A DNA stretch of 64,000 nt from an uncultured Pseudomonadales bacterium. GTDB lineage: Bacteria > Patescibacteriota > Microgenomatia > UBA1400 > MFAQ01. The stretch spans positions 10,411 to 74,410 of the forward strand of contig CAZGSP010000039.1 of assembly GCA_964528565.1 (NCBI GenBank), given 5' to 3'. The stretch's first letter is position 1; every line of letters begins with the position of its first letter. The notes beneath the pieces are model-generated. The model was not told where the DNA came from, did not search any database, and worked only from the letters and a program-made list of their open reading frames with translations. Positions 30,980 through 49,802 of this stretch are shown here, in pieces. Made by a program: the position numbers and the translations under genes.

Positions 30980-31019
30980 GGCTAATATAGTTTACGCTAT
31001 ATGGCAGTACAATAATATT

Positions 31020-32432: not shown

Positions 32433-33851
32433 CTAGATTCCCAGATCACGAAGCAGATTTATTTTTATTGAGCTCTGATTGTTTGATTTTTGGACGCCGT
32501 AAATCCAGCCAAAAGCTTCATCTGCGGGACACGAGAGCGGATTACCGGCATATGTCCGAAAGAGATAACACCAGCCACCGTAGGCAGAGTAGCCAACTTC
32601 ATCTTGTGTTCCTAATATGATGGAGTAAGGCTGGTTTTGGATATCTTTGGTAATTTTGATAATTCTTTCCCTTCGGGATATCAAACCATACTTTGACTGT
32701 TCACAAGTAAAAATTGTAATAGCTGAGAAGAAAACAAGAATGAGAATCAGGAACCAGGAAATTTTGGGGCTTAAGGAAGAAAGAAGTGTCCCCGAGAAAA
32801 TGGAAAATAGGGTAAAGAAACTGAGAAGGTAGTATTCGATCACGTTACCGGGATAAAGAAGATAGGAGGTAATTGAAATAATAAGCATCACGAAAAGAAG
32901 GCAGAATTTTTTGTCTATCTTGGCCCTGAAAAACGAAAGAACCAAGATACCCAAAGAAAAGGATGAAAGGAGAAGGATGGAACCTGTTGGTGTACCCGCA
33001 CCTCCGAAGCCCATTTCGGCCTGAACTGACGTCCGAGGACGTAGATACCAGAAACGACTAAGCGAGTTCCAAGTGGTGGACAAACGGCCAGGCATTCGAT
33101 CTATCATGGAGGTATTGCTTTGGGAAGTGAGCATGCGAAGCGGAGTGCGCAGATTGTCAAAGTTATGGACTTTGTCGAAGACAAGAAGTGGAGAAATCAA
33201 AACCAGATATACGACGACGGAAGATATCCAGGTACTAAAAGTGATTCTTTTGAAGGACTTAAAAACGAGAAAAATAATTACCGGCCAGAACATGAGCAGT
33301 GAAAGGTGAACATGGAGCACCGTGGCCATAATGGCCGAAACGAGAATGAACCAACGAGTATCTTTCTGAGATTTGTATAAAGAATATAACAGCCAAATAG
33401 TCAGTAGCGGAATGGGAGATGGATTCCAGAAACGACGATCAAAGAAATTCAAGAGAGGAGATCCGGCGTATATAAGTGAAGAAAAAATGGCTACCGAGGG
33501 CGAAAACAATTGAGACGAAACAAAGTATAAGGAAATAACCGTAGCCAGACCAAGTAACGGGGCAAAGTAAGCAAGAATAAGGGGGTCTCCTCCCGAGAAG
33601 AAGAATAATAGGGCATTTAAATAGGTGAAGGCGGGTCCAAGATAAAAACCGGTATTTCCGGCGCTCACTCCAATCCAGATGGGATGAAAATCCTGGACCT
33701 GTGACCAAGCAAGAAAAGCCTGATATTCTTCGTCAAAATTGAAACTAAACCACTCACCTGCTTTCCAAAAACGGAGTACCACCAGAAAAACAAATAAGAC
33801 GGCTACGACGAATTTGTATAGATTGTTTGTTGATGAAGATTCTTTGGCCAC
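32433..33851 (-). CDS. GT-C membrane glycosyltransferase, PMT_2/ArnT-like.
   Basis: The first loop carries SFNFDEEYQAFLAWSQ (DE motif). 472 aa, multi-TM. Confidence 0.5.
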   Translation of the reverse strand: MAKESSSTNNLYKFVVAVLFVFLVVLRFWKAGEWFSFNFDEEYQAFLAWSQVQDFHPIWIGVSAGNTGFYLGPAFTYLNALLFFFSGGDPLILAYFAPLLGLATVISLYFVSSQLFSPSVAIFSSLIYAGSPLLNFFDRRFWNPSPIPLLTIWLLYSLYKSQKDTRWFILVSAIMATVLHVHLSLLMFWPVIIFLVFKSFKRITFSTWISSVVVYLVLISPLLVFDKVHNFDNLRTPLRMLTSQSNTSMIDRMPGRLSTTWNSLSRFWYLRPRTSVQAEMGFGGAGTPTGSILLLSSFSLGILVLSFFRAKIDKKFCLLFVMLIISITSYLLYPGNVIEYYLLSFFTLFSIFSGTLLSSLSPKISWFLILILVFFSAITIFTCEQSKYGLISRRERIIKITKDIQNQPYSIILGTQDEVGYSAYGGWCYLFRTYAGNPLSCPADEAFGWIYGVQKSNNQSSIKINLLRDLGI

Positions 33852-33866
33852 AGAAATAGTTTAGTA

Positions 33867-34997
33867 CTAGGCGACGAAGTAGCCGCGAGTAAAGAAAATG
33901 ATGGAGAGAATAGACAAGACGGTGCAAACAGCATAGAGACCATACTTAACAAAAGGATGTTGTTTCTCCAACCAATAAGCCATGACCATGAACACGGGGA
34001 AAAGCACCAAAGTAAACCGGGGCATACTCATAAAAGTGCCGGAAAATGTGGGAAGAGCGAACGACAACAGAACAAATAACCAATAAGAAAAACGGATTCT
34101 CTTGAAGAAAAAAATTAGGATGGTGATAATCAACAAGGCCGAAAGCAACTCCATGACAACGGTAAAGTAGAGAGGATCCCAGTCGGTGAAAATTAGCATT
34201 TTGAAATACCGGAAAAAGACTTGGTGAAGAAGGATGAGTTTGTCCACGGTTCGGCCACCGAAAACAGACTGGATATGAAAAAAGAATAACGGATCCCCGG
34301 TCTTGAGATACTGAAAACGCATGAATGAAAAAAGCCCCAGTGGAGGAAGCAGCAACCATATGGCAGATAGATTAACCGACTTTCTAAAATCTTTGCCGTA
34401 CATGAGCCAGTATTCATAAATGATGGAGGGCCAGAGAAAAAATCCGGTGATTCGGGTGGCCGAAGCGATCGCGGCCAAAAGACAGGCCAGGAAGAAGTGT
34501 TGGCGGCGAAGCAAATAAAAAGTCAGGATAACCAGTAAGAGAAACAAAGACTCGGTATAGACGGAGCCAAAAAAGAAGGCTGTGGGAAAAAGAAGAAGTA
34601 AATAAATAGTACTCTTGGCGATCTTGGGTTTGAAGTCGAGTAGAACTAGTTTGTAGAGGAAATAGAGAGCCAGAATAAGGGAGACGTGTGAGACAAATAA
34701 TCCCGAAGCAAGATAATTACCGAAATAGTTGAAGGTTCGAACCGACCACGGGTAGACAGGGAAAAAAGCATAATCCATATCGGTTTTGTGCTGATAGCCA
34801 TAGCCGTATTGAGCAAGATCCAGGTAATGAAGTCCGTCAAAGTTTGACCACATGGAGAAGATATTACTGACCGAAGGCTTTTCCGTCAGATTGGTGAAGC
34901 GGGTACGGGGAGAAAGGAGGAACATGGCCGGAAGGGCAATAAGAACGATTAGTAGCCGCCAACCCAGAACGAGTTTGAAGATCTCTTTTAGTGACAT
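33867..34997 (-). CDS. GT-C membrane protein resembling the PIG-V / GT76 mannosyltransferase family.
   Basis: WSNFDGLHYLDLAQYGYGYQHKTDMDYAFFPVYPW matches the W-D-x-x-x-Y-x-x-I-A-x-x-G-Y … AFFPLYP signature of PIG-V-like proteins. Confidence 0.45.
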   Translation of the reverse strand: MSLKEIFKLVLGWRLLIVLIALPAMFLLSPRTRFTNLTEKPSVSNIFSMWSNFDGLHYLDLAQYGYGYQHKTDMDYAFFPVYPWSVRTFNYFGNYLASGLFVSHVSLILALYFLYKLVLLDFKPKIAKSTIYLLLLFPTAFFFGSVYTESLFLLLVILTFYLLRRQHFFLACLLAAIASATRITGFFLWPSIIYEYWLMYGKDFRKSVNLSAIWLLLPPLGLFSFMRFQYLKTGDPLFFFHIQSVFGGRTVDKLILLHQVFFRYFKMLIFTDWDPLYFTVVMELLSALLIITILIFFFKRIRFSYWLFVLLSFALPTFSGTFMSMPRFTLVLFPVFMVMAYWLEKQHPFVKYGLYAVCTVLSILSIIFFTRGYFVA

Positions 34998-36001
34998 AGG
35001 GTTTTGTAAACTTCTAGGGTGAGGTGGGCGGTTTTGGACCAGCTGAAATCGCGAGAACGCTTTTTGGCCAGTTCGATCTGCTTGGCCTTGGCTGAAGATG
35101 ATAGATTTAGAGCATTGGCGATTGCTTTTTCCATCGATTTTAATTTTCTTGGGTTAAAGACGATCGCCTCTTCGTGGTAGACCTCCGGGAGACTGGAGGT
35201 CTTGGAACTGGCCACCAGACAACCGGCTGTCATCGCTTCGAGTAGTGGAAGACCAAACCCTTCGTAGAGGGAGGGCTGGACATAAAGTTCGGCCAAATGA
35301 AGCATGGCATTAAAGTCATCGTTTGGGACGTAACCCGGATAAATAATGTGGTTATAGACCTGAAGTCGGACAAGATCGATAAGCTCGGGTTCGACCGGTT
35401 TGACGATCTCCTGCAGCATACCTTTTCCGACTATGACGAGCGGTATTTCCAGACGATCGGTGACTTCTGCCAGTGAAGGGAGATTCTTGTTCGGGTTGGG
35501 ACCGGCGGCGAGAGTCAGAACAAATTTGTCGGGTAAATGATATTTTTCTTTTACCTCCTTAAGTTTGGATGCCGAGGGAACTTTTCGGTATGCCTCGTCC
35601 ACAGCCAGAGGGGTAACAAATATTTTCTCCGGAGCGGTGCGGAAGTACTTGATGATATCTTCTTTGGAATTTCCGGAATCGGTGATAATGGCAGAGACGG
35701 TTCTGAGTGACCACCACTGAATGAGAAGTTTTATGGTTCCCCTAATGCCTTTGGGGTATTTATCGGCCAGAACCAAGGGTGTCAGATCGTGGATGGTGAC
35801 AACGGTCGGTCTTTCTTTTTTTAAGGGTAAGGTGAGATAAAAAGGATCGAAAAAAGGATAGTGAATAATGTCGGGATCTTTATCGGTCAGCTCAATTTTC
35901 GGTAATTTTTCGAGGGCAGTTCGAAGATGTTCGGCATAGACACCGACTCCCCTACCGGAAGAGTGTCCACCACCATCGAGAAAGACTTTAATTGGTGCCA
36001 T
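34988..36001 (-). CDS. Glycosyltransferase family 4 (GT-B).
   Basis: …VVTIHDLTPLV… and …EGFGLPLLEAMTAGCLVASSKTSSLPEV…. Confidence 0.7.
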   Translation of the reverse strand: MAPIKVFLDGGGHSSGRGVGVYAEHLRTALEKLPKIELTDKDPDIIHYPFFDPFYLTLPLKKERPTVVTIHDLTPLVLADKYPKGIRGTIKLLIQWWSLRTVSAIITDSGNSKEDIIKYFRTAPEKIFVTPLAVDEAYRKVPSASKLKEVKEKYHLPDKFVLTLAAGPNPNKNLPSLAEVTDRLEIPLVIVGKGMLQEIVKPVEPELIDLVRLQVYNHIIYPGYVPNDDFNAMLHLAELYVQPSLYEGFGLPLLEAMTAGCLVASSKTSSLPEVYHEEAIVFNPRKLKSMEKAIANALNLSSSAKAKQIELAKKRSRDFSWSKTAHLTLEVYKTLCH

Positions 36002-36869
36002 ATTCTTCGTCTTTATAGAGTTCCCATAGTTTCATATAGGAGAAAGCGTGATGAAGACCGGAATAGAGTGAAAAAACAAAGCCTGGAAAACCATCCATGA
36101 AGCCGCGGTAACGGAAATAGAGACTGCAGAAAGTGCCGAGGGGTTTAAAAAATAAATAGTTTAGCGTATTAAAGATGTTGATCTTGACTCCGGCTTCTTT
36201 TAATTGATGAGCCTTCAGACTAGAGTACGTATTTTCTCTCAGGAGATATCGGGAAAAATGAGGGGTGGCGTAATGATCCAGATCCGACACCAACCAACCG
36301 GTAACGCCGTGGACCACCATTTGCTCGTGAACGTCCTTGGCCGGAAGAACAGCTTTCCCTTTTTGAAAGAGACGGATGACCGGATCGGGGTACTGACCGG
36401 CGTTTTTGAGATAACGATTCAGAAAGAAGTTTTTACGGGGTAGCCAGTAGGCAGGGGCTGGTTCCGTCAATTTTTTTGGTCTGGGAAAAACAGTTAGATA
36501 TTTATTGACCGATGATTTGAGAGGAGAGATCCAGGAATCATAGCCAAAATACGTGCCCTCCAGAATACCGACGATCTCCTTCTTCATCCCGGGGGTAACT
36601 CTTTCGTCGGCATCCATCTGAAGAATCCAGTCGGACTGGGCTTCCCGGTTCGCGATGGCTTTTTGAATATGGAAGATCGGATTGTTTTCCCGGAGGAGGA
36701 TTTTGGCCCCATATTTCTTGGCGATCTCTACCGTCTTGTCCTGAGACCGGCCATCGACGATGATGATCTCGTCCGCAAAGTCTTTGACCGAGTCGAGACA
36801 GGCGGCGATGTTTGACTCTTCGTTGTAGGTAGCCAGGGTGACGGAGATAGTTTGGCGTTTTATTTTCAT
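35988..36869 (-). CDS. Glycosyltransferase family 2, D-x-D-E-R subfamily.
   Basis: ISVTLATYNEESNIAACLDSVKDFADEIIIVDGRSQDKT … WILQMDADERVTPGMKKEIVGIL. A paralog of the ORFs at 1718, 59631 and 62310. Confidence 0.7.
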   Translation of the reverse strand: MKIKRQTISVTLATYNEESNIAACLDSVKDFADEIIIVDGRSQDKTVEIAKKYGAKILLRENNPIFHIQKAIANREAQSDWILQMDADERVTPGMKKEIVGILEGTYFGYDSWISPLKSSVNKYLTVFPRPKKLTEPAPAYWLPRKNFFLNRYLKNAGQYPDPVIRLFQKGKAVLPAKDVHEQMVVHGVTGWLVSDLDHYATPHFSRYLLRENTYSSLKAHQLKEAGVKINIFNTLNYLFFKPLGTFCSLYFRYRGFMDGFPGFVFSLYSGLHHAFSYMKLWELYKDEEYGTN

Positions 36870-38503
36870 GGTGTGGCAATAAACTTGTACATAGGATGTC
36901 CCACAGGGTCGTTTATGATGTAGATGACCGCTTTGTCATCTACGGACTCATCAGCAGAGATTATAAGGGTTTTGACAAGCTTCCGGTCCTCGGGATAGTT
37001 TATTTGCCTGAATTCGAACTTATCAAACGCCCGGACCGTGGAGAAACCGAACCTGTCCCGCGGGGTCATAACCAGTTCCTTTTGTAATTTTTGGGGTGGA
37101 TATTGAAGAAAGAAAGCCATCAAAATATAGGGCTGGTCGTAGCGGTCGGAGATCACGATACGGTCGTATTCATCGTAGTGTTCTTTGACGTAGCCGGCTA
37201 TTTGGTCAAAGCCATATTGCCATGCATAGGGTAATTCTTTGGGATAATGAACGTAGTACAGATGGAGATAACGGGCGACACAGTAGCCACCGAAAAGAGA
37301 GATTAGGAAAACAAAGAGAGAAAAGACCACTTTGATGTTTATCTTCTTAAAAAATTCCATGGTCGCGGTAACACCAAAGGCACAGATAAATGTCAAAGGT
37401 ATCACCATATTTTGGGCGCGAAGGGCATGAGGACTTTGGAACGTCAGAGCCGCTGCCAAAGGAGAGATCAGGAACCAGATAAAAATCAATCGCTTTTCTT
37501 TTGATTCTAATTTCAACAAGGAAAGTAGCCCAAAAAAGTAAAACGGTATAAGGAACATATAGGTTTGCCCCATGCCGGGTACTTTACTGCGGGCGATTTC
37601 GTCCCCGGTGACAAAGAGGAAACGTGGCGAATAATGAGAAAGATAATTCTTCACAAACCTGAGACTGTAGGAAAGATATTGATTGTGGATGGCTTTTACA
37701 AAGATCGTTTCCGGAACATGGGCGCGGCGCATTTCCAGGGCCTGCCATAACGGACCGGTGTCGGCAAAGACGGAAACACCGGTAAAACGGGACTGGCCTT
37801 CTTTGGACAGTAGTTGACCGGCCAAGGGAAGTACGAGAACAAAACCGAGGACGGCGGCGGCAATAACTAGTTTTATCCTCTTCGGCGCCAAGTCGCCCAA
37901 TAAAGGTTTCCAATAAATAACCAGGAGAGATAAAACCAATAGTGGAGAAATGATTCGAGCGGAATGATAGGCGTACATGCCGGTTGCCATGGATGCTGCA
38001 AAAAGGAATAAGAGTTTAGTTTTTTCCAGACCTCTAAAAAAGGCCCAAAGTCCCAATAGGATAAAGAACAGAGCGGCATTTACTTCCCACCCGCCTCGGG
38101 AAAATTGAAGATGCCATGGTGAGATGGCCAGGAGCAAGGCCGAAATGACCGGTAAATATTTATTTTTGGGGAATAGTGATCGGGCCAATAAATAAACAAG
38201 ATAGACGGAAGCAATACCCAAGATGGCCGATGGAAGGCGGACAGCCCAGATGTTTAAACCGAGGATCTTCACAAACGGCAAAACCAAATAAAAATAGACC
38301 GGGGGTTTGAAGTCGTCAAAAGACCGGAAGACCAGTGGCCAGGAAGCTCCGTGTTCATCCTTGCCGGTTTGGATCAGGGACCAGGCGTTGTAACCGATGG
38401 CGGCTTCGTCGGCGTTTAGACCGGCGGGGAATTTATCCAGAGCAAAAAGTCTTAGGGCCGAAGCTAAAAGAAGAATTAAAATGATGGATAAATATTTTTT
38501 CAT
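36866..38503 (-). CDS. GT-C membrane glycosyltransferase, PMT_2/ArnT-like. Tandem paralog 1 of 6.
   Basis: MKKYLSIILILLLASALRLFALDKFPAGLNADEAAIGYNAWSLIQTGKDEHGASWPLVFRSFDDFKPPVYFYL. Multi-TM. 4-nt overlap with the downstream GT2. Confidence 0.65.
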   Translation of the reverse strand: MKKYLSIILILLLASALRLFALDKFPAGLNADEAAIGYNAWSLIQTGKDEHGASWPLVFRSFDDFKPPVYFYLVLPFVKILGLNIWAVRLPSAILGIASVYLVYLLARSLFPKNKYLPVISALLLAISPWHLQFSRGGWEVNAALFFILLGLWAFFRGLEKTKLLFLFAASMATGMYAYHSARIISPLLVLSLLVIYWKPLLGDLAPKRIKLVIAAAVLGFVLVLPLAGQLLSKEGQSRFTGVSVFADTGPLWQALEMRRAHVPETIFVKAIHNQYLSYSLRFVKNYLSHYSPRFLFVTGDEIARSKVPGMGQTYMFLIPFYFFGLLSLLKLESKEKRLIFIWFLISPLAAALTFQSPHALRAQNMVIPLTFICAFGVTATMEFFKKINIKVVFSLFVFLISLFGGYCVARYLHLYYVHYPKELPYAWQYGFDQIAGYVKEHYDEYDRIVISDRYDQPYILMAFFLQYPPQKLQKELVMTPRDRFGFSTVRAFDKFEFRQINYPEDRKLVKTLIISADESVDDKAVIYIINDPVGHPMYKFIATP

Positions 38504-40186
38504 TTATGGCTTGGTCTTGAGGACTCTAAAAAGAATTTTATGATCGGGGGTTTCGATCTGACGGAAATGTTCGACATTTGAGCCGGCGATATCGTATTGT
38601 CTATTGATATTACCCTCGGAGCCAATAAAAAGGGTGTCTTTCTGGGTGTTCATATCGGAATCTCCAAACTGGTGGAACTCCACGTTGCCGATCTTATCAA
38701 CACGTCCAACATCCAAACCGCCACTGACGAAGTCGTTGTTAGCTTGATATGTGGCGGGGTCGTAGGCGGTATAAAAAACATAATAGATATATGGCTGGCC
38801 AAAGACATCGGTGAAAACAATTTTTTTGGCGGGATAGTCTTTGATGGCTTGGACTACCTGTTTGTAGCCATAATTAAACTCCGAGGCAAAAACCGTTTGG
38901 CTATGGAAGAAATAAACATCAAAGGTGTAGAAGGTGAGGAGAACATACAAAGCCACCAGTGGTATGGAGAAGTATTTTAAAATTGAAAGACAATAATACG
39001 TACCGATACCGGAAATAATGGCTAGTGGTACGGTCATAAATAAAGCCCGAACGGTAGAAAATTCCGCAAGTGTTAATGAGGCGGGGATGGGGGCAATGAG
39101 TAACAGACCCAGGATGATCAAAGGTGTCTTATCAAATCCCTCGTGCGTACCGTTAACTATTAATCTCGATAGATAGATCAAACCGAAGATAAGCCAGATA
39201 AATTCGAGGGGGTTCAAGATTCCCAGAGATGGAACGTGTCCCCTCTCGGTAATGGTGGGACCCTCGTAAAAAAGTACTTCCGGTGAAAAATGGTAAACAT
39301 ACCTGGACAGAACCAGCGAGGTCGAGAGCTGAAGCTGGTTGTGAAATAACGGAATGGTCCCGGAGCCCGCGCCGTCGATCGGTGCCAATTTGGCAGTGAG
39401 ATCCGGCTTGTAGTTGAAAATACTCAGGGTGCTAAGCCTGTTCCCGGCACTGCCCAAAATCGAACCAAAGAAGATCCAAAGTCCGAAAAGAACAAAGGGT
39501 GCAAGAAGTAATAATTTTTTAGGTTTAAGGTAAACTGGAATTTGTTGCCAAAAATCTTTCCGGTAAATAGCTAGAAATAAAAGAAAAACGAGTGGAGTAA
39601 GAAGTTTGGCGGCTTGATACATGGCCAGGGAAAGGCAGGCAAATAGCAAAGACGGAAAAATGGACGAACTCCCCTTGAGGAATCTAAGGAAGTAATACAA
39701 AGCAAAAATGGTCAGTGTGGTAAATACATTCACTTCCCACGCGCCATGACTAAAATGGACATGCCAAGGCGAAATAGCCAGTGCGAGGGCGGCGAGGTCC
39801 CAGGGGAACAACTCAAAGCCGAGGATTTTAAAACCTTTTGTCTTTGAATCAATAAAAATTTCTTTGGTTAGGAGATAGACTCCCCAGATGGCCAAAATAC
39901 CGGCAAGAGCGCTAGGAAAGCGGACTGCAAATTCATTTAAACCAAATATGGCCACCATGGGAACGGTGAGATAAATGTAGGCGCCGGGTTTGTAATCACC
40001 AAAACTTTTGAAAATAAGGGGGAGAAAAGCGCCGTGCTCGTCCCTGCCGGTCTTGAGAATGGAATAGGCGTTGTAACCAATGGCCGCTTCATCCCAGGTA
40101 AGCCCGTTGGGAACAGCTGACAACATCCATAGCCTAAGAAAAGATCCGATGACCAACGCAATAATTAGAATAAGGTATTTCTTCAT
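38504..40186 (-). CDS. GT-C membrane glycosyltransferase, PMT_2/ArnT-like. Tandem paralog 2 of 6.
   Basis: MKKYLILIIALVIGSFLRLWMLSAVPNGLTWDEAAIGYNAYSILKTGRDEHGAFLPLIFKSFGDYKPGAYIYL. Confidence 0.65.
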   Translation of the reverse strand: MKKYLILIIALVIGSFLRLWMLSAVPNGLTWDEAAIGYNAYSILKTGRDEHGAFLPLIFKSFGDYKPGAYIYLTVPMVAIFGLNEFAVRFPSALAGILAIWGVYLLTKEIFIDSKTKGFKILGFELFPWDLAALALAISPWHVHFSHGAWEVNVFTTLTIFALYYFLRFLKGSSSIFPSLLFACLSLAMYQAAKLLTPLVFLLFLAIYRKDFWQQIPVYLKPKKLLLLAPFVLFGLWIFFGSILGSAGNRLSTLSIFNYKPDLTAKLAPIDGAGSGTIPLFHNQLQLSTSLVLSRYVYHFSPEVLFYEGPTITERGHVPSLGILNPLEFIWLIFGLIYLSRLIVNGTHEGFDKTPLIILGLLLIAPIPASLTLAEFSTVRALFMTVPLAIISGIGTYYCLSILKYFSIPLVALYVLLTFYTFDVYFFHSQTVFASEFNYGYKQVVQAIKDYPAKKIVFTDVFGQPYIYYVFYTAYDPATYQANNDFVSGGLDVGRVDKIGNVEFHQFGDSDMNTQKDTLFIGSEGNINRQYDIAGSNVEHFRQIETPDHKILFRVLKTKP

Positions 40187-41877: not shown

Positions 41878-43558
41878 AGAATAACGGCTCTCCCGAGGGT
41901 AAGTATATTATGGCATCTTTTATGGCCGTGGAGTCGATGTCGGTACCTTCGACTTCCGCCCTGGTTAGGAAATAGATGGCGCCGGGAAGTGAGTTCTCCC
42001 GGACATTCTTTGAATCTACCAGGTTGGCAATGTATAGCTCCGAATCCCCTATCCGATTGCCTTCCAAATTATTTCTACCTTGAGTTGAAGTGAAAGCAAG
42101 ATCGTTTTTGACAAAGTTTTGGAAACGCTTGGGGTCGAATTCGGTGTAGAACAAATAGAACATGAGGGGAGGATCGTACTTTGGTGAAATAATGATCGGC
42201 CGACCGGGGTGTTTCTGGGCCAACTCAACAACTTCTTTTAATCCGGCACTAAAAGCTCTCTCCGAACTGTAACGATAATGGAACCAGTAATCATGAATAA
42301 AGAAAACCGATTCCAAAAGAATAAGGCCAACAAAAAAGTAAAATAACGATTTTCGGTTACTGTATAGATAAGAAAGGGCGAGACCCGAAATAATTACCGT
42401 CGGCTGTAACATCATGAACGAACGGCTGGCGTGACCGGCACCATCCCGGGTGATCGCCGAAGTGGAAACGGCGATCATCGTTAACAAACCCAATACCAGA
42501 AGAAGGCGGTCATGCCGGTGACGGATTAAGAAAAATATGCCGATCAGTAATAACGGCCCCATAGATCGGTAAAGCATTCCCGATCCGGCCGGTGAATGTC
42601 GAAGATTGGGATCCCCTTTCGTAAAGAGGAAGTCTGTAGAAAAGAGACCAAAAACATTATTAATGAGATTGCCGGCAAACCAGAAAGGTTTATTGTGGAA
42701 GAATTTAGTAGGGATCGAGGGTGAGGAACCGACGGGGGCACCGGGACCGATATCCAGTTGGCGCTGGAAATTAATTTCTGTCGCGGCCGTAGGATCGGAA
42801 AATATGGAAATATAATCGAACCGGGCGGTTGTTCCGCCTCCAACGAACATGATCACCAGAGGAATGAACATTGCCAAAAGAGCAATTTTGACCGAAAGGC
42901 TCTTTTTGAATAATTCAAACGATCCGGGGAGCAGAAGTAAAACCACCGGATATGCGATAACGGACATTTTGGCCGTGTTGTAAACCATGGGCGAAAGGCC
43001 TAAAAACAAAACCGAGAGATATAAATAGGTATTTTTTCTTTTGATCAAAAATTCGGTAAAGAAATAAAAACCCGCCGTAACAAAGAAATAAAGCATCGCC
43101 AGGGCAAAACCGATCCGTGAATAAGTGAAATGCCAGGGAACGAGAGTCAGGATCAGAGCCCCAAACAGACCGGCGTGAGGGAGATCCAGATCAAATAGTT
43201 TCTTGGATGAAAGATTTCCGATCAATAAATAAGTGAAGAGAATTCCTAATAAGCCAAAAAGTGCCGGAACAAGACGGATGGAAAGATCCAAGGGGACACT
43301 TAGAAGGTGGGCTAGGGCAATCAAATATATTGGAATGGGTGGTTGAACATCACTGAAGGAATGGAATTGAACAGGCAGACAAAAACCGGAATAATCACAC
43401 CCCGTCTTAATGAGAGACAGGGCTTGATAGCCCATATCCACTTCATCGGAGTAAAGACTGATAGGATTTAGGAGGAGTCCATAAAGCCTGAGAGCTCCGC
43501 CAAGCAAGACCACCAGGATCAATGGCCAATACTTGAGTGGTAGTTCTTTTATTTTCAT
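41861..43558 (-). CDS. GT-C membrane protein, PMT_2/ArnT-like. Tandem paralog 4 of 6, with a degenerate second acidic motif.
   Basis: …SLYSDEVDMGYQALSLIKTGCDYSGFCLPVQFHSFSDVQPPIPIYL…. The first DE is retained. The TG[KR]DE[HWF]G motif is replaced by TGCDYSG. Confidence 0.6.
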   Translation of the reverse strand: MKIKELPLKYWPLILVVLLGGALRLYGLLLNPISLYSDEVDMGYQALSLIKTGCDYSGFCLPVQFHSFSDVQPPIPIYLIALAHLLSVPLDLSIRLVPALFGLLGILFTYLLIGNLSSKKLFDLDLPHAGLFGALILTLVPWHFTYSRIGFALAMLYFFVTAGFYFFTEFLIKRKNTYLYLSVLFLGLSPMVYNTAKMSVIAYPVVLLLLPGSFELFKKSLSVKIALLAMFIPLVIMFVGGGTTARFDYISIFSDPTAATEINFQRQLDIGPGAPVGSSPSIPTKFFHNKPFWFAGNLINNVFGLFSTDFLFTKGDPNLRHSPAGSGMLYRSMGPLLLIGIFFLIRHRHDRLLLVLGLLTMIAVSTSAITRDGAGHASRSFMMLQPTVIISGLALSYLYSNRKSLFYFFVGLILLESVFFIHDYWFHYRYSSERAFSAGLKEVVELAQKHPGRPIIISPKYDPPLMFYLFYTEFDPKRFQNFVKNDLAFTSTQGRNNLEGNRIGDSELYIANLVDSKNVRENSLPGAIYFLTRAEVEGTDIDSTAIKDAIIYLPSGEPLFYEVHF

Positions 43559-45231
43559 TTGGATTGTGGGTTGGTTCTTAATATTCTGATGGCAACATCT
43601 CCATTAGGTAGTTTCACTTCCTTTATTATAGAGAGGTGGTGTTCCGCTATCTGGACCGGCCCGATAGCAATATTTTCGGCTACGATATACTGATCGACGT
43701 GATCGGTATCTATACCCCATTGAAAGTTCTTGACGGTGATTCTTCCGAGATTTTTGGTGGGGTTCCGTTCCATGTTTATGTAATACTCGTCTAACGGTAC
43801 TTCGAAGTTGTCTTTTTGATAAATGGCCGGGTCATATTTCATAAAAAATAACATTAAGATATAGGCGTCACCACGGGACCCGTCAACGATCACCGGCAAT
43901 GTGGTGTCCAGTTTGGGAATTTCTTCTGCTATCTGCTCCCATCCATAGTTCCAATAAGTGGACGTAAAATGGTCATTTAAATAAAAAATGGAAATAAACA
44001 TTTGAGTCGAAGAAAATAGAATTAAAATACCCAGAACGAGAAGTTTGTATTTGTTGAGTGCCGGCAAAATAATCTCCCAGAGTTTAATAAGGCCGAAGGA
44101 AATAAGTATGGTTTGGGGAATAACCAACGAGAGAGCTCTTAGGGTTGAATAGGGGTCCCTGGTGAGAGCTGCCGGCACCGGAGAAATAAGAAGTAGAACA
44201 AAAGTAAATATTTTTAAACCTTTACGATCTTTTTCTTTAATTAAAAAGTAAAGACCGGCAAGATAAAACAGAAGCAACCAGGGGAAAAAGGTACCCATAT
44301 CGGGATACGGCTTCCTGGGTCCGGAGTCCCCTAATTGAAACATATACCGGGGGGATAGATAAGAGGAATAAAGTGAAAAAAATTCTTTGGCTGAGAGCGT
44401 CTGAGGAATATTGACAATTCTCCGGAGAGTTGAACCGTCTTCTTTTAAACCCCAAGGATTTTGACGGGACGAAAGAATATTTAGACTGGAAGTGCGGGCT
44501 TGGAATCCCGGAGTCCTCATTATCGTGAGCATGGGTACGACAAGAACAAAACCAAGAATAAAGCTGATGATGACGGGGATGATAAAAGTCTTTTTGCCAG
44601 CCAAGAGTTCTTTGTAATGTCCGATTGCCAGAGCCAGTACCAAAACGGGGACTATTAATGTTTCGGCCCGGTAGGCCGAAAAGGATAACGCATAAAAAAT
44701 CGCAGAAGCAACAAACAACCATGGCCTCTTGAGAGCATAAAAGAACATTAAGGAGCCGAGGATTAGGAGAAAGAGAGCAACGTTTGTTTCGTAGGCGGTA
44801 CGGCTATAAGCAATATGCCAGGGAGAAACAGCAAGGAAAAAGGTGGAAATCAAAGCTAAGATGCTTCCATATTTTTCCGTCGAAATTTTCTTCACCAAAA
44901 AATACAGGAGAGGAATCGTGAGAATTCCAAGAATGACGGAGGGCAAACGAACAGAAAGAGGGTTTAGTCCAAAAACCGCTATAACCGGTACGGTGATATA
45001 GGTATATACAGGACTTTGAAAGGTAGCGAAGGAACGAAACATGGCCGGAAATGATTTCCCAAATTCATCTTTGCCTGTTTGGAGAATTGAGTAAGCGTTA
45101 TAGCCTAGTGCCGCCTCATCGACATAAAAACCTTTAGGTGTTTCTCCGATCCGGTACAGCCGGAAAAAGCCGGCTATAAGGATAATGAGTATCAATAATA
45201 GTGCCGGTAAATACCTGAAGGAGAATTTCAT
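43555..45231 (-). CDS. GT-C membrane glycosyltransferase, PMT_2/ArnT-like. Tandem paralog 5 of 6.
   Basis: …GFYVDEAALGYNAYSILQTGKDEFGKSFPAMFRSFATFQSPVYTYI…. Confidence 0.65.
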   Translation of the reverse strand: MKFSFRYLPALLLILIILIAGFFRLYRIGETPKGFYVDEAALGYNAYSILQTGKDEFGKSFPAMFRSFATFQSPVYTYITVPVIAVFGLNPLSVRLPSVILGILTIPLLYFLVKKISTEKYGSILALISTFFLAVSPWHIAYSRTAYETNVALFLLILGSLMFFYALKRPWLFVASAIFYALSFSAYRAETLIVPVLVLALAIGHYKELLAGKKTFIIPVIISFILGFVLVVPMLTIMRTPGFQARTSSLNILSSRQNPWGLKEDGSTLRRIVNIPQTLSAKEFFSLYSSYLSPRYMFQLGDSGPRKPYPDMGTFFPWLLLFYLAGLYFLIKEKDRKGLKIFTFVLLLISPVPAALTRDPYSTLRALSLVIPQTILISFGLIKLWEIILPALNKYKLLVLGILILFSSTQMFISIFYLNDHFTSTYWNYGWEQIAEEIPKLDTTLPVIVDGSRGDAYILMLFFMKYDPAIYQKDNFEVPLDEYYINMERNPTKNLGRITVKNFQWGIDTDHVDQYIVAENIAIGPVQIAEHHLSIIKEVKLPNGDVAIRILRTNPQSK

Positions 45232-46049
45232 GATCGATAGATAATTATCCGAGCTAATTCAATAAATGAAATCAGAACAAAGACTACAGAAAAAATCAAA
45301 AAATATTTGGCGGATAGGGTCTTTAGTTTTTTCAAACCAAAGATAGACATAATGGAAACCGGAACACACAAGAGAATATCGAACCGATCCTGGTTATTTA
45401 TGAAACTAATTGAAAGCACCATGGCCAGAAAGACACTCACAAGCCAAGCTTTGTCTCGGCTATCTTTTAGGTAGAACAAACCCAAAAGAAAAGGAATAAT
45501 TGCCAGGTAGGAATATTTTATGAGGTTTTGATTGTCCCCCGATTCTCTCGGGTGTAGAGCAAAAAAGTAGTTATTGGGGTCAAGCGAGACAAATAGGTTT
45601 GCCTTGTATTTATTTTGAAAAACAGTGGTTTTGTTTTCAAATATCCGGGCTAGGTTACGATTTGGGATCAGGGAAATTTTCTTAATTAAAGTATCTTTGG
45701 CTAAGGGATCGGGGGTGAAGATGGAATAAGCGTAAAAAGTCTTCCAGGAGAAAAGGGAAACGAGAAACAATAGAAAAGAAAAAATAAAGAGTCCGGTTTT
45801 GTCGAAGTTCTTAATGTTTAATAAAAAGATGAGAAAGGGAATCAATAAGTAGGCCGGGTGAATCAAAGGCAGTAGCAGATATATAAAGTAACGTAATTTG
45901 TTGCCGGTGCGAAACAAAAAGTAATCGAGGAGAACTAATGAGGCGGCCAGAATGAACGGAACCCAGGAATCGGAATTGGATAAAATAAAGGAAAGGGGCC
46001 AGAAGGCCAGTATCAAAACAGCCGAGATCCAAAATAAAAACGTTTTCAT
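45228..46049 (-). CDS. Hypothetical polytopic membrane protein (273 aa).
   Basis: Highly hydrophobic, about 8 TM segments, no recognisable motif. It lies inside the GT-C operon and overlaps the upstream gene by 4 nt. Confidence 0.4.
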   Translation of the reverse strand: MKTFLFWISAVLILAFWPLSFILSNSDSWVPFILAASLVLLDYFLFRTGNKLRYFIYLLLPLIHPAYLLIPFLIFLLNIKNFDKTGLFIFSFLLFLVSLFSWKTFYAYSIFTPDPLAKDTLIKKISLIPNRNLARIFENKTTVFQNKYKANLFVSLDPNNYFFALHPRESGDNQNLIKYSYLAIIPFLLGLFYLKDSRDKAWLVSVFLAMVLSISFINNQDRFDILLCVPVSIMSIFGLKKLKTLSAKYFLIFSVVFVLISFIELARIIIYRS

Positions 46050-46072
46050 GTTAACTAGACAAATTATATGCG

Positions 46073-47764
46073 TTATCTATCCGAAATAGCATAAAGTCCT
46101 GAAGAATTATTAAGGAAAGGCGCGTAAGCTTTTTGGTTTTGGGAATCAATCAATTCTTTCGGGATACTCCAAGGGCTGGAAATATAAAGATTGTTCCGGG
46201 TGTGATCAATATCCGGCCAGTTTATAGGGCCAAAAAAATAATTCTCGAAATCGGTTCCACCGGTATTCCTGACGGAGCCGGTATTGTATGAGGACGGATC
46301 GTATTGCGAATAAAAAAGAAAGTATAAATAAGGAACACCGTAAGTATATGGACCATCCGTGCCAAACCGAGGGTCGATATAAACTTTCTCGTATTCCGAG
46401 TGGTGATTTCGTGCGTAGATGGCCATTTGTTTCCAACCATACGATCTGGCTTCCGACAACTCAATGGGATAGTGAAGGGTGTAGTAGTCGACAAACCTCA
46501 GTATTCCCAAAAGATAACCACCAACGACGACTACTGCGAGGAGAGATTTCCAGAAAGTATTCTTAAACTTCCCGTAAACAAATAACATTCCCAAAGAGAT
46601 GAGAATCGAAAAGACGGGAACTATATTTAGAGTGCGCAGAGCGTGTTGACTGTTATTGGTAATGGAGGCAGGAATAAGGGCGATGAAAAACCACACGGCT
46701 AAAACATTTGCCGTAAATTTTCCGGATAAATAATCGGTTACAAATTTGTGTCGGAAGAAAAGTAGAAGTGAACCGATGATCAAAAAGGGGTATTCAATCA
46801 TATAAATTACACCCTGTCCCGGATGACCCGGAGTGGCTAGACCTAAGCCATCGGAAAGGTAAAAATTTGGGGAAAAATACTCTAGGAAACGCTTGTACCA
46901 GAAAGAGATCAGGCCAACAGCAGAGGTAAGCCAAGAGAGGGGATGTCCGGAAATAAAAGGTAATATACCGTTGGTGTAGTCGTAATCTTTCGTTAACAGG
47001 GTCATACCGGCGCGGGTGCCACCGGATCCAAGAATGAAGTTCTTGACGAAAAAAACAGTAATAAAGAATAACGCAAATGAAATGAAGAAAAGAGAATTTT
47101 TCTTGTTGGAATACCAAGAGGTAATACTAGACTTGAAGAATCGGTAATTGGCGAAAATTATAAATAAATTTAACAATGGGACTACGATCTTGGTAGAGTG
47201 ATAAGTAATGGCGGAAAAGTAGGCAAAAATAACCATTAAGAAGAAGTCGGATATTTTTTCCGATCGCCGCCAACGAAAGGTAAAGATCAAATTTAGAAGC
47301 AAAAACGATAATGCCGTAATGGCTTCGAATCCGGAACGGGAAAATGGTACTAGCCACGGAGATAGAGTAAAAATAAAAGTGGCTAAATAAGACAGTTCTG
47401 CCGACTTATTGCTAAAAATGAAACGGCTGATTAAAATCCAAAACAAAAAGACATTTAAGGCAGAAAAAACTGCCACCGGGAGACGGGTGCCCAGCTCGGT
47501 CAAGCCAAACAATTTTATAAAGGGAACTGTCACATAGATGAGTACCGGCGCCTTGTAGTCGCCAACCGACTTAAAAGATATAGGGAGAAAAGACCCCCAC
47601 TCGTCTCTCCCGGTCTTAAGAATTGAGTAGGCATTGTAACCGATTGAGACTTCATCGATCGAAAGAGACGGTGGATATGACGTCAGCTTGTAAAACTGGG
47701 TGAAGAAAACAATGACTCCGATAATTAGCCAAAAAATTATTTTGTAATGATTTTTTCTCATCAT
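46073..47764 (-). CDS. GT-C membrane glycosyltransferase, PMT_2/ArnT-like. Tandem paralog 6 of 6.
   Basis: …PSLSIDEVSIGYNAYSILKTGRDEWGSFLPISFKSVGDYKAPVLIYV…. Confidence 0.65.
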   Translation of the reverse strand: MMRKNHYKIIFWLIIGVIVFFTQFYKLTSYPPSLSIDEVSIGYNAYSILKTGRDEWGSFLPISFKSVGDYKAPVLIYVTVPFIKLFGLTELGTRLPVAVFSALNVFLFWILISRFIFSNKSAELSYLATFIFTLSPWLVPFSRSGFEAITALSFLLLNLIFTFRWRRSEKISDFFLMVIFAYFSAITYHSTKIVVPLLNLFIIFANYRFFKSSITSWYSNKKNSLFFISFALFFITVFFVKNFILGSGGTRAGMTLLTKDYDYTNGILPFISGHPLSWLTSAVGLISFWYKRFLEYFSPNFYLSDGLGLATPGHPGQGVIYMIEYPFLIIGSLLLFFRHKFVTDYLSGKFTANVLAVWFFIALIPASITNNSQHALRTLNIVPVFSILISLGMLFVYGKFKNTFWKSLLAVVVVGGYLLGILRFVDYYTLHYPIELSEARSYGWKQMAIYARNHHSEYEKVYIDPRFGTDGPYTYGVPYLYFLFYSQYDPSSYNTGSVRNTGGTDFENYFFGPINWPDIDHTRNNLYISSPWSIPKELIDSQNQKAYAPFLNNSSGLYAISDR

Positions 47765-48450
47765 ATCGGGAAATATGTGGTAACTCTTAAGTGATAGAGA
47801 AGATAGAGGACGTTTAAGATGGCAAAAAATATCGTTGTTTTCCTTGAGGAAGAATAGTATCCCTGAGCCGACAGTAAGGCGAGGAAAAAGATGACGCCGA
47901 AACTATAAAGCATGGCCTGATCTACATAGATGAATCCCGTCAGTAGTAATAAAGAAGATAAGGATATCAAAAACGGGAGGTAAGAATAGCTAATTTTGTG
48001 CTTATTGTGCTTGAAATAGCTATAGATAAAGTAAATATCCCAGGGAAAAAGATAGCCTAAAGGGTAAAAAGAACCGATTTTGTGCCAGAAACCGGAGGCA
48101 AAAATAGCGGCCGGTGAAAGTAATTTGTCGAAATTTTCGATAAAAGAATAGGACAACTCTGTTTTGTTATGAATCAGTTTGGCCACAAAATTTCCGGCAA
48201 AATCGGGGTGCTCGCCTCTTTGAGAGTTGATAGCATTTAGTAGCCCCATATCCAGACCCAGTCTGGGCTTTATGATAAACAAGGAGACTGCCAGAACCAT
48301 AAGAAAAATCAGTAATTGATAACTCTTGGGTTTGGTAAATAAAACATATAAAAGTAAACCCAGGACAAAGGATGTTAAAAGCAAAAAAATACTTTGACCG
48401 GAAAAAAGAATAATGGGTAGCGTGGAGAGATAAAAAACAACGAAGATCAT
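47761..48450 (-). CDS. Hypothetical membrane protein (229 aa).
   Basis: About 6 TM segments. 4-nt overlaps with both neighbours. Confidence 0.4.
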   Translation of the reverse strand: MIFVVFYLSTLPIILFSGQSIFLLLTSFVLGLLLYVLFTKPKSYQLLIFLMVLAVSLFIIKPRLGLDMGLLNAINSQRGEHPDFAGNFVAKLIHNKTELSYSFIENFDKLLSPAAIFASGFWHKIGSFYPLGYLFPWDIYFIYSYFKHNKHKISYSYLPFLISLSSLLLLTGFIYVDQAMLYSFGVIFFLALLSAQGYYSSSRKTTIFFAILNVLYLLYHLRVTTYFPI

Positions 48451-49691
48451 TGCGTCTTGAGACGGGGCTTAAATAAGTCGGCGATCAAAAAAATGCTAAC
48501 GCCGGCAAATAGACTCCTAACCGAACTCTTGAGAAAAATCAAGTCGGTTTTTCCGGCCAGTAACTTGTCCATTCCGGGAAAATTATTTAGATTCCGATTA
48601 ATCACGGCGAAAAGGCCTACCGAAAGCGAGTTATCAAAGGTTAAGACAATAAAGACATAACAAGCAAAAAGTGTAAGATCCAGCCAAAGGTTGTGCCAAC
48701 TACTATCCACCAACTCAATAACAATAAAGGGGGCGACCCAGATGAACCATTGAGGGTGATAATGGGTGACGGAAAAAAGAATCAGGAAATAGGCAAGATA
48801 ATACTTCCAAAGATTTTGAACTAAGTTTGAGTTTCTGAAGGCGTGTAAATAGACAAGGACAACACCGATCAAGTATGGATATATCCCCTCTGCGGCCGTC
48901 ACCATCCATTCCATATAAAACATTTTTTGCGACTTGGCGCCGAAGACCATGTATTTAAATGCAGAAGAGCCAAGAAAGGGCGCGATGGTAATGAGATAAG
49001 GCAAAACTCCACAAAGGGTAACTTTGAAGCCCGTCCAAAAATCCTTGGCACTAAAGATAATAAACGGTAGTAAAAAAATCGGGTACTGCTTAAAAGCGGC
49101 TCCGAGCGAGATCATGACCGCGGCCAGGTAAAGATTTTTCTTTTTGGCAAAGTACAAAGAAAGCACGGTAAAGAGCACGGGAATGATATCGAAAACACCC
49201 ATGGCAAAAGTGGCATAAAGGGTGACCGGATTAAATAGCCAGAGGAGAAAAGCCCATCTTTTTTTCTTCACATCTTCAAAAAGAGAACTCAGGGCAAAAG
49301 CAACCCCGATATCAACTAATAAGTAAGGTAACTTAAGAAGGATCAGGTTGAAAGAAAGGGCGGGCAATTTGTAGACCGAAATACCGTTCATCAGACTAAG
49401 AAAGAAATTTTCCGGAATGATCAAGGTAAAGAGCTTAAGAAATGATCCCAAGGTAAAGTACGTTAAAGGCGGATAGATAAAGATATCCCCTACTCCGAAA
49501 TTTTGGACCAAAGGATGAGTGGCCGGTAGACTAACCAGATAGTCATAAATGTTAAAAACATTTTTATAGGCGAAAAAATAACTTGTGAGAACCTGGCCGG
49601 ACAAATCGGGATGAAAGGTAATGCCGGAAATAACCAGCCTGAGGACGATAGCCGATATTAGTGCTATGACCAGACCCTTGGTGAATTTCAT
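48447..49691 (-). CDS. Polytopic membrane protein. First gene of the long minus-strand GT-C operon. Possibly GT-C-like (DUF2029/GT87-like).
   Basis: 414 aa, about 11 TM segments. Loop motifs …GVGDIFIYPPLTYF…. No confident family assignment. Confidence 0.4.
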   Translation of the reverse strand: MKFTKGLVIALISAIVLRLVISGITFHPDLSGQVLTSYFFAYKNVFNIYDYLVSLPATHPLVQNFGVGDIFIYPPLTYFTLGSFLKLFTLIIPENFFLSLMNGISVYKLPALSFNLILLKLPYLLVDIGVAFALSSLFEDVKKKRWAFLLWLFNPVTLYATFAMGVFDIIPVLFTVLSLYFAKKKNLYLAAVMISLGAAFKQYPIFLLPFIIFSAKDFWTGFKVTLCGVLPYLITIAPFLGSSAFKYMVFGAKSQKMFYMEWMVTAAEGIYPYLIGVVLVYLHAFRNSNLVQNLWKYYLAYFLILFSVTHYHPQWFIWVAPFIVIELVDSSWHNLWLDLTLFACYVFIVLTFDNSLSVGLFAVINRNLNNFPGMDKLLAGKTDLIFLKSSVRSLFAGVSIFLIADLFKPRLKTQ

Positions 49692-49802
49692 GGTTTAAGT
49701 ATATCAAGACTTGGAGTACGATATCTTAGTGAAGAATTTCTTCATATTTTTAGGCAGGTGGGATGTTTATGTCAAAAAATAAATTTTTGCTAAAATTAAG
49801 CG
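49692..49802 (-). promoter_or_regulatory. Divergent intergenic region. Candidate promoters for the about 13-gene minus-strand GT-C operon and for the plus-strand gene at 49803.
   Basis: 111-bp AT-rich spacer between divergently oriented starts. It is the only sizeable non-coding gap between 32.4 kb and 49.8 kb. Confidence 0.3.

Follow-up and report, generated by a model that had tools for sequence, protein, structure and literature searches.

A conserved array of GT-C glycosyltransferases in a member of the Patescibacteria, the possible core of an assembly line for an envelope glycan

The 13 genes at positions 32433-49691 of the window (the whole 64,000-nucleotide stretch of DNA that was analysed) probably build a so far unstudied surface sugar coat and, with slightly better than even confidence, we propose that, in this very small Collierbacteria-like groundwater bacterium of the Patescibacteria (Microgenomates; candidate phyla radiation, CPR), they form the core of an assembly line for a cell-envelope glycan. 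In such a line, a lipid-linked primer would be made by cytoplasmic GT2 and GT4 enzymes, moved across the membrane by a Wzx-like protein and then extended and branched on the outer face by a GT-C series composed of six tandem paralogs (C1 to C6) together with PIG-M/GT87-like, PIG-V-like and further PMT_2 proteins. GT2 enzymes of the GtrB/DPM1/PpgS kind would supply polyprenyl-phosphate sugars, from which each GT-C would transfer one sugar at a time, and each paralog would serve a different acceptor position or linkage; two truncated GT-C modules would probably assist, without catalysis of their own, the full-length enzyme whose gene comes next. This reading is supported by the retention of catalytic-type residues in every copy, by the long persistence of separate copies, and by the presence of the partner functions (GT2, GT4, Wzx-like, GtrB-like hairpin GT2 and PpgS-like GT2) in one conserved locus. 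The mechanism of systems that combine a GT-A synthase, a flippase and a GT-C is known (PMC11754754).

A first-pass annotation of this DNA had proposed 13 ORFs between 32433 and 49691, all of them on the minus strand, and every one was found exactly there. Their products have, in transcription order, 414, 229, 563, 273, 558, 565, 564, 560, 545, 293, 337, 376 and 472 aa, and the successive junctions are -4, -4, +23, -4, -4, -17, -4, 0, -4, -14, -10 and +15 nt, including the six ATGA overlaps that had been named, which are all present in the sequence. As every ORF was begun at its first possible start codon, the true overlaps may be shorter than -17, -14 and -10. This packing on one strand, with junctions of -17 to +23 nt, is consistent with a single operon, delimited by a divergent spacer of 111 bp (49692-49802).

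The six paralogs are C1 (46073-47764, 563 aa), C2 (43555-45231, 558 aa), C3 (41861-43558, 565 aa), C4 (40183-41877, 564 aa), C5 (38504-40186, 560 aa) and C6 (36866-38503, 545 aa), of which C6 was the one modelled structurally. Their paralogy is clear from pairwise BLASTP (E 5e-22 to 2e-77; 1e-25 to 1e-57 for C1 and 1e-39 to 1e-69 for C4 against the others). The N-terminal motif DE-x-x-x-GY-[NQ]-A-x-S-[IL]-x-x-TG-x-D...P...F...Y given in the annotation was also found, with the DE present in C1, but C3, the most divergent copy, has TGCDY and not TG[KR]DE. Identity in the motif region, estimated at about 40-50%, was measured as 36-68% (mean 51%), and over the full length it is 22-34% (mean 28%). 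All six copies keep two adjacent acidic residues in the first outer loop: [D/E]32-E33, following TM1, occurs in all 303 family members as well as in every copy of the window, and among the 303 sequences conservation reaches 100% for [D/E]32 and for E33, 99% for D49 and for R89, 94% for E140 and ∼100% for R362. C3 retains D32/E33 and has Y instead of E50 and A instead of E140. The polytopic membrane domain shows the GT-C helix arrangement, and the best Foldseek matches were the oligosaccharyltransferases (OSTs) STT3, AglB and PglB (E 2e-7 to 2e-5). A search of the six-paralog family profile against all PDB chains returned nothing at E up to 1. Only fold comparison ties this family to the solved GT-Cs, and the fold suggests that the paralogs would use lipid-phosphate-linked sugar donors and act on the outer face. 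GT-Cs are a well-known enzyme class, and the advance would lie in the pathway and in the idea of accessory subunits rather than in the chemistry.

The paralogs had been labelled PMT/ArnT-like and comparable to Emb/Aft. Against Pfam PMT_2 (PF13231), C2 (34.6 bits), C3 (43.0) and C6 (47.6) exceed the gathering cut-off of 26.1 bits and C1 (22.1), C4 (16.5) and C5 (24.5) fall below it; the six proteins are not strict members of GT39/PMT, ArnT or Emb/Aft and form a large family of their own. The only match to the PMT domain (PF02366) among them was C3 (18.2 bits, cut-off 22.7), MIR and PMT_4TMC domains were absent from every copy, and neither Arabinose_trans (GT53, Emb/Aft) nor STT3 was matched in Pfam, which sets the paralogs outside GT53 and GT66. 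These results bear on the possibility that the paralogs glycosylate proteins (as PMT or the OSTs STT3, AglB and PglB do), each acting on its own group of secreted proteins (pilins, sortase substrates or S-layer proteins, for example). The name of the PMT_2 family, taken from protein O-mannosyltransferases, and the Foldseek matches would agree with this, as would a semi-conserved [WF]-[QN]-Y-G motif just after the last TM helix, which recalls the WWDYG of OSTs, and the enrichment of pili and sortases in CPR bacteria (PMC6744442). However, the acidic position of WWDYG is Q or N in the paralogs, the aromatic positions are only 55-64% conserved, and the PMT and STT3 results just described point the other way. 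A Wzx-like protein and many cytoplasmic GTs would suit glycan building, although OST pathways have both too. All in all, we consider protein glycosylation rather unlikely. An ArnT-like modification of lipid A was rejected, as the NCBIfam ArnT (GT83) equivalog was not matched (the one weak hit, to Agl23, reached 42 bits where the cut-off is 126), which also separates the paralogs from ArnT and Rhizobium RgtA-D, and the acceptor would be missing, since neither an outer membrane nor lipid A is expected in CPR bacteria (PMC6744442).

The block had also been said to contain three small membrane proteins, a class that does not hold together: two are truncated GT-C modules (229 and 273 aa) and the third, gene 1 (48447-49691, 414 aa), is a polytopic PIG-M/PimE-like (GT50/GT87-type) GT-C candidate. 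Gene 1 itself scores 19.7 bits against Pfam GT87 (cut-off 25), six of its eight orthologs match this family (best E 3.5e-9), and their profile matches GPI mannosyltransferase 1 in the PDB (E 2.6e-7). An H-P-D motif following TM1 is invariant in the gene 1 family, and hhalign found no relation between it and the six-paralog profile (probability 3.5%); judging from these sequence comparisons, gene 1 is a different GT-C branch. The truncated modules, gene 2 (47761-48450, 229 aa) and gene 4 (45228-46049, 273 aa), lie immediately upstream of C1 and C2, respectively, and are homologous to GT-C residues ∼123-413, with the catalytic loop missing. Gene 2, which is joined to C1 by a 4-nt overlap, has neither a DE loop nor a soluble C-terminal domain, and hhalign relates it to the GT-C profile with a probability of 89% alone and of 97% (E 5e-11) within alignment A3. 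In 25 of 26 cases a full-length GT-C follows the truncated module at a distance of -10 to +5 nt, and the cassette of module and C2 is duplicated as a unit in three related loci (L011, L015 and L019). PIG-U/GAB1 of the GPI transamidase offers a possible parallel, as a non-catalytic protein with a GT-C-like fold, but it is full-length, whereas the window modules are cut to the region of residues ∼123-413 and encoded beside an intact enzyme.

Downstream of the array, the presence of GT2, GT4 and PIG-V-like enzymes was confirmed. The GT2 (35988-36869, 293 aa; Glycos_transf_2, 74 bits) has no TM segment in a hydropathy scan and has counterparts of 41-81% identity after the array in nearly all related loci, and the cytoplasmic GT4 (34988-36001, 337 aa; Glycos_transf_1, 69 bits; Glyco_transf_4, 47 bits) is kept immediately after it. 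The PIG-V-like (GT76-type) GT-C (33867-34997, 376 aa), kept after the GT4 in many loci, exceeds the Mannosyl_trans2 (PF04188) cut-off (25.3 vs 22.4 bits) with a match that spans only profile positions 50-203 of 443, and it also shows a weak PMT_2 match. The last gene encodes an additional PMT_2-type GT-C (32433-33851, 472 aa; 31.6 bits), a lineage-specific addition. Among the loci examined, only that of the closest relative, L007, has a counterpart in the same place (89% identity); the others, including L001, L002 and L004, lack one there.

The block is not the self-contained unit that had been described, as it is the middle part of a locus conserved in Patescibacteria and of a glycan island that fills the whole window, with 15 GT-C-type proteins, 12 GT2 and 4 GT4. 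On the minus strand, the conserved continuation comprises four genes (26002-30979) whose L001 and L002 orthologs lie directly after the PIG-V-like gene: a Wzx-like membrane protein (29711-30979; two of seven orthologs match Polysacc_synt/_3, best E 1.4e-7, and its profile found no sequence match in the PDB), a PpgS-like GT2 (28852-29763; E 1e-13, far below the PpgS cut-off), a GT2 that ends in a GtrB-like TM hairpin in the TM scan (27854-28852) and a B12 radical SAM enzyme (26002-27645). Identity to these orthologs is 61-78% for the first three and 37-52% for the radical SAM enzyme. Upstream, and on the same strand, lies a block (51350-63224) that includes GT2-GT2-GT2-GT4-GT2 genes identified with Pfam (62310-63224, 60436-61365, 59631-60605, 56931-57995 and 52162-53070), and in distant Patescibacteria their homologs directly precede the array in this order, in more than 30 loci. 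For the polytopic proteins of the window that had no Pfam match, a scan with a lenient threshold (E up to 1) added only a sub-threshold PMT_2 match for 49803-51353 (19.5 bits) and gave no identity for four of them (2661-4481, 7901-10201, 58009-59649 and 30951-32432), and Rfam and tRNA scans of the window were empty. Several results count against the assembly line: the window yielded no recognisable initiating phosphoglycosyltransferase, polymerase, ligase, LCP transferase or GtrA-type flippase, several of the Pfam and NCBIfam scores are below curated cut-offs, and the Foldseek matches to OSTs mean that proteins may be the acceptors. As all NCBIfam matches of the GT2 and GT4 enzymes of the window are far below their cut-offs, with no equivalog-level name, no sugar or linkage can be assigned to them.

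A search for synteny showed that the locus is conserved in many relatives, with a common plan in which five cytoplasmic GTs are followed by 2-7 tandem GT-Cs and then by the GT2, the GT4 and the PIG-V-like GT-C. C4, C5 and C6 form a conserved core with one-to-one orthologs (34-75% identity) in four candidate phyla, at about one copy per locus and in fixed order; a single ortholog per genome of each, in the same order in Collier-, Woese-, Shapiro- and Daviesbacteria, bears out the view that these are old, diverged paralogs. In a neighbour-joining tree built on a fast alignment without bootstrap, from which we used only the clear C4, C5 and C6 clades, C4 forms an exclusive clade of 32 leaves from 29 loci and that of C5 spans 28 loci. 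The C4 orthologs of L001, L002 and L004 are 66-67% identical, and C5 orthologs 67-74%. A recent duplication or an assembly artefact was rejected, as the paralogs are only 22-34% identical and their order is repeated in many independent assemblies. The promoter-proximal half behaves differently, since C1-C3 and the truncated modules vary in number and are only 28-64% identical in L001, L002 and L004, which were compared directly. GT-C copy number ranges from 2 to 7, and one and the same junction has taken up additional GT-Cs and a toxin-antitoxin pair in different genomes. Together, these features could indicate that the array is mainly a diversity generator, in which partly redundant copies are gained, lost and swapped, so that surface glycans vary and the cells escape phages or change host attachment. 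No repeats, invertases or phase-variation tracts were noticed in passing. The stable and strongly conserved distal half (C4-C6, GT2 and GT4) and the catalytic-type residues kept in all copies make this quite improbable for the array as a whole, but such turnover could be compatible with the assembly line in the variable half.

The closest known systems are the arabinogalactan and PIM/LM/LAM assembly pathways of mycobacteria and corynebacteria (EmbA/B/C, AftA-D, PimE, MptA-C; PpgS/Rv3779), in which, as proposed here, serial GT-C paralogs work on the outer face on a primer made by cytoplasmic GT4/GT2 enzymes. Their donors are decaprenyl-P-arabinose and polyprenyl-P-mannose, so that a few lipid-linked donors serve many enzymes differing in acceptor; in the window, three or four candidate donor synthases for 15 GT-C-type proteins likewise favour differences in acceptor over differences in donor. 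The GT87-like enzyme and the PpgS-like GT2 add to the likeness, and emb genes are also adjacent paralogs. In contrast, the window proteins reach half the size of Emb and carry none of its carbohydrate-binding domains, the organism is a CPR bacterium and not an actinobacterium, and six to seven copies form one tightly packed run with interleaved truncated modules. PIG-M-like and PIG-V-like enzymes are chain builders in GPI and PIM synthesis, but the ER-lumen pathways of N-glycan and GPI synthesis (ALG3/9/12, PIG-M, PIG-V; Dol-P-Man) differ from the bacterial locus by a sequence identity of 9-15% and by a transamidase/OST for the final transfer, which was not recognised in the window. The three-component systems of Gram-positive bacteria (SccN/SccM, SccP/SccQ, GacI/GacL, CsbB/GtcA/YfhO) resemble the window in their PMT_2/YfhO-kind GT-Cs, in a presumed single membrane, in candidate Und-P-sugar synthases within the same island and in outward-facing inverting transfer as the expected chemistry (PMC11754754). 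It could be argued from them that no polymer is made and that each GT-C ends an independent system adding single side-chain sugars to an existing wall polymer, a teichoic-acid-like polymer or peptidoglycan, a role that has been characterised for PMT_2- and YfhO-type GT-Cs (PMC11754754, PMC7389260 and PMC10821137); the window contains a YfhO homolog (53074-55347). Nevertheless, the characterised systems have their own GT-A synthase for each GT-C, whereas here arrays of 2-7 GT-Cs occur without one-to-one pairing, membrane-anchored GT2s are far fewer than GT-Cs, and no GtrA/GtcA homolog was recognised in the window. Moreover, the fixed C4-C5-C6 order beside the GT2, GT4 and PIG-V-like genes over deep divergence looks like one pathway, and PIG-M-like and PIG-V-like enzymes argue for chain building, so side-chain decoration alone seems unlikely. 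An extension of the assembly line to which we give little credence is that C4-C5-C6 and the pairs of truncated module and full-length enzyme form a hetero-oligomeric machine, for which Pmt1-Pmt2 and EmbA-EmbB are precedents, in which catalytically dead half-GT-Cs would hold or hand over the lipid-linked chain. The machine would then make a lipoglycan or wall glycan common to all Patescibacteria, and the envelope of these ultra-small episymbionts would have a major component that has so far escaped notice.

Patescibacteria represent a large part of bacterial diversity, have genomes of ∼1 Mb, live attached to other cells and are thought to have a single membrane, and to the best of our knowledge the chemistry of their envelope is essentially unknown. 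As the first-pass annotation had suspected, no published description of such an array was found for CPR, Patescibacteria or Microgenomates, in a literature largely outside subscription journals. The 64 kb given over to glycan synthesis would be ∼6% of a related near-complete 1.09-Mb genome (L010), and since lineages from Microgenomates to Paceibacterota share a core of the island, its product is likely to matter to the envelope or to contact with the host. The locus offers well-defined targets, namely the core GT-Cs C4-C6 with their one-to-one orthologs, the cassette formed by a truncated module and its neighbouring enzyme, and candidate donor synthases. Regarding its expression, the divergent spacer upstream of gene 1 is the sole intergenic gap able to hold the operon promoter and contains TTGACA-18-AAAAAT (49775-49746, minus strand, 10/12), one of the two best sigma-70-like matches on that strand in 31000-50500; as the total of promoter-like sites there is no higher than in shuffles, this candidate promoter is only suggestive. 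Terminator-like matches inside the genes numbered 33, against 22.0 expected from shuffles (sd 5.1), an excess of ∼2 sd.

The 13 consecutive minus-strand ORFs that the first-pass annotation had described, running from 49691 down to 32433, were recovered in the ORF table with exactly those coordinates, and the six ATGA overlaps that it had named are all found in the sequence. In transcription order the junctions of this block measure -4, -4, +23, -4, -4, -17, -4, 0, -4, -14, -10, and +15 nt. Its upstream edge is a 111-bp spacer with a divergent gene on the other side, and at its downstream edge the stop codons of the last gene (32433-33851) and of a convergent gene (30951-32432) abut with no spacer. 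Of the two best minus-strand sigma-70-like matches of the region, one (10/12) falls within the 111-bp spacer; the total count of promoter-like sites over the block region was not above chance.

Six of the genes, named here C1 to C6 in transcription order (C1, 46073-47764; C2, 43555-45231; C3, 41861-43558; C4, 40183-41877; C5, 38504-40186; C6, 36866-38503), encode proteins of 545-565 aa that are mutually homologous (BLASTP E 5e-22 to 2e-77) and that all carry the N-terminal signature proposed for them, with pairwise identities of 36-68% within the signature region and 22-34% across the entire sequences. Pfam PMT_2 was matched above the cut-off by three of them and just below it by the other three. 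According to this, the family is GT-C, about equally far from the known branches; strict membership in PMT/GT39, ArnT/GT83, Emb/Aft, or the oligosaccharyltransferases (OSTs) was considered and rejected. It is also large and without a name, comprising 6,291 clusters at 50% identity (exhaustive profile search, E up to 1e-30). Pfam further confirmed the GT2 (35988-36869), GT4 (34988-36001), and PIG-V (33867-34997) calls for the three genes after the array and identified the last gene as a further PMT_2 protein.

Across 303 aligned family members from ~80 loci (numbering of C6), the acidic pair after TM1, [D/E]32 and E33, is present in 100% of the sequences, D49 and R89 in 99% each, E140 in 94%, and R362 in about 100%, and E50 is kept in 68%. 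On sequence grounds, each of the six copies in the window seems competent for catalysis. The DE pair is retained in C3, where E50 is replaced by Y and E140 by A; this copy may have a different mechanism or substrate. The best Foldseek matches are OSTs, and directly after the last TM helix (residues 428-434 of C6 and the same columns in the 303 homologs) there is a semi-conserved [WF]-[QN]-Y-G-[YFW] (G 89%, W/F 82%, Y 55%) that resembles, in sequence alone, the WWDYG motif of OSTs. Both observations would fit the paralogs being protein glycosyltransferases, but the defining features of OSTs and PMTs were not found in them, and we consider this function rather unlikely.

The block had also been said to contain three small membrane proteins. 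These are membrane proteins indeed, but they do not form a uniform class, as one is a predicted GT-C of another branch and two are truncated modules. The first gene of the block (48447-49691, 414 aa) has an ortholog profile that matches the solved GPI mannosyltransferase 1 (PIG-M/Gpi14; E 2.6e-7), and six of its eight orthologs match Pfam GT87; profile-profile comparison found no relationship between its family and the six paralogs, and it is predicted to belong to a different GT-C branch. The proteins of 229 aa (47761-48450, preceding C1) and 273 aa (45228-46049, preceding C2) share homology with the paralogs over the middle and C-terminal portion of the membrane region; hhalign aligned the small-protein profile to paralog residues ~240-413 with 97% probability (E 5e-11), and a second alignment paired small-protein residues 12-269 with paralog residues 123-413 (87%). 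Because they do not contain TM1, the DE loop, R89, or the C-terminal soluble domain, catalysis by these two proteins seems unlikely. In 25 of the 26 cases in related loci, the truncated gene is followed directly, at a spacing of -10 to +5 nt, by a full-length paralog (19/20 once duplicate records were removed), and in three loci (L011, L015, and L019) the pair has been duplicated as one cassette. Our search detected these modules only in Collierbacteria- and Woesebacteria-type loci, and their public homologs have neither a name nor a Pfam domain; one of them, ACD_61C00071G0010 from an uncultured bacterium, is identical to the 273-aa protein.

Homology was strongest to proteins of Candidatus Collierbacteria, Woesebacteria, and other Microgenomates, and a scan of species-representative genomes located the family in Collier-, Woese-, Shapiro-, Davies-, Curtiss-, Levy-, and Gottesmanbacteria and in Paceibacterota, with 2-7 copies within 10 kb either side in nearly every locus. 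Many public MAG records with this Patescibacteria-type locus (L007, L009, L015, L023, and others) bear the title 'uncultured Pseudomonadales' or 'uncultured Gammaproteobacteria', and identity to the window proteins reaches 94% in some of them; these titles look like wrong taxonomic labels.

Gene-by-gene comparison of three independent loci (L001, L002, and L004) divided the region into two parts. The promoter-distal part consists of one-to-one orthologs with 61-85% identity, except for the PIG-V-like gene (42-85%) and a radical SAM enzyme (37-52%); it comprises C4, C5, and C6, the GT2, GT4, and PIG-V-like genes, and, beyond the block, 29711-30979, 28852-29763, 27854-28852, and the radical SAM gene 26002-27645. 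In a neighbor-joining tree C4, C5, and C6 each have a clade to themselves, in which a locus is represented about once, over some 28 loci and taking in Shapiro- and Daviesbacteria. These three core paralogs have stayed separate, and in fixed order, since before several candidate phyla split. Greater variability, with 28-64% identity and changing gene number, marks the promoter-proximal part (C1, C2, C3, and the truncated modules). This variable half could be a diversity generator, a role that we find quite improbable; it would be compatible with our main model (a serial assembly pathway). Since homologs of 62310-63224, 60436-61365, 59631-60605, 56931-57995, and 52162-53070 recur in this order in distant genomes, followed by the GT-C array and the GT2, GT4, and PIG-V-like genes, the 13-gene block is the middle portion of a Patescibacteria-wide conserved superlocus. 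In the window, two additional GT-C genes (32433-33851 and 30951-32432) separate the PIG-V-like gene from 29711-30979, and at the same junction L004 (13590-16902) has an HTH/Gp49 toxin-antitoxin pair and one opposite-strand GT-C, only 48% identical to its window counterpart whereas its neighbors are 80-85% identical. This junction (window 30951-33851) is an insertion hot spot.

Pfam annotation of all window ORFs of at least 150 aa showed that the whole 64 kb, beyond the 17-kb block, is given over to glycan synthesis, a length equivalent to ~6% of a related 1.09-Mb genome. The island encodes 15 GT-C-type proteins, including a YfhO homolog (53074-55347), together with 12 GT2, 4 GT4, five methyltransferases, two B12-binding radical SAM enzymes, an AsnB-like protein, an epimerase, and a nucleotidyltransferase. 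Further GT-C-type genes are 215-1717, 5285-6778, 30951-32432, 49803-51353, and 55348-57000. Three polytopic proteins, 2661-4481 (606 aa), 7901-10201 (766 aa), and 58009-59649 (546 aa; its homologs turn up repeatedly in distant genomes, within the conserved locus), matched no family even at a lenient threshold and could be more GT-C-like enzymes or a missing polymerase or ligase.

In characterized bacterial GT-C systems a GT-A enzyme makes a polyprenyl-phosphate sugar, which is used, after a flippase step, by an outward-facing inverting GT-C (PMC11754754). Candidate donor synthases in the island are a GT2 with a GtrB-like C-terminal TM hairpin (27854-28852), a PpgS-like GT2 (28852-29763; E 1e-13, far below the cut-off), and two GT2s with one TM helix each, and the candidate flippase is a Wzx-like protein (29711-30979; two of seven orthologs match Polysacc_synt families, E 1.4e-7). 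These synthases are far fewer than the GT-Cs. That the GT-Cs are independent side-chain decoration systems seems unlikely to us, and the most economical reading is a serial glycan-assembly pathway, in which cytoplasmic GT2 and GT4 enzymes would prime a lipid-linked glycan that would then be flipped and be extended and branched by the GT-Cs, one acceptor position each. The same serial logic operates in mycobacterial AG and LM/LAM synthesis and in the ER-lumen ALG and PIG steps. Pfam recognized no initiating phosphoglycosyltransferase, polymerase, ligase, or LCP transferase in the window; speculatively, their absence would suit a glycolipid-anchored product, in the way proposed for the PIM-like lipids of a saccharibacterium (PMC6031116).

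Neither the enzyme class nor the pathway logic is new and no new chemistry is implied, and the genes already have public database entries, labeled 'glycosyltransferase family 39' or 'hypothetical'. In the literature searched we found no description of the conserved tandem array, of the Patescibacteria-wide superlocus around it, of the one-to-one orthology of the three core paralogs, or of the cassette of truncated module and full-length enzyme. Judged from its sequence, the array is a well-supported starting point for work on the cell-envelope chemistry of CPR bacteria.

The two B12-binding radical SAM enzymes (16862-18442 and 26002-27645, the latter part of the conserved locus) lie among glycosyltransferases, and 16066-27645 also encodes three methyltransferases (one FkbM-type) and an asparagine-synthase-like amidotransferase, a content that points to unusual tailoring of the sugars, for example by C-methylation or amidation. 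A plus-strand group at 11607-16032, possibly a module for nucleotide-sugar supply, encodes a HAD-like hydrolase, a shikimate-dehydrogenase-like protein, a 528-aa MobA-like nucleotidyltransferase, a GatZ/KbaZ-like protein, and a 147-aa protein (15589-16032) that is cupin-like by eye.
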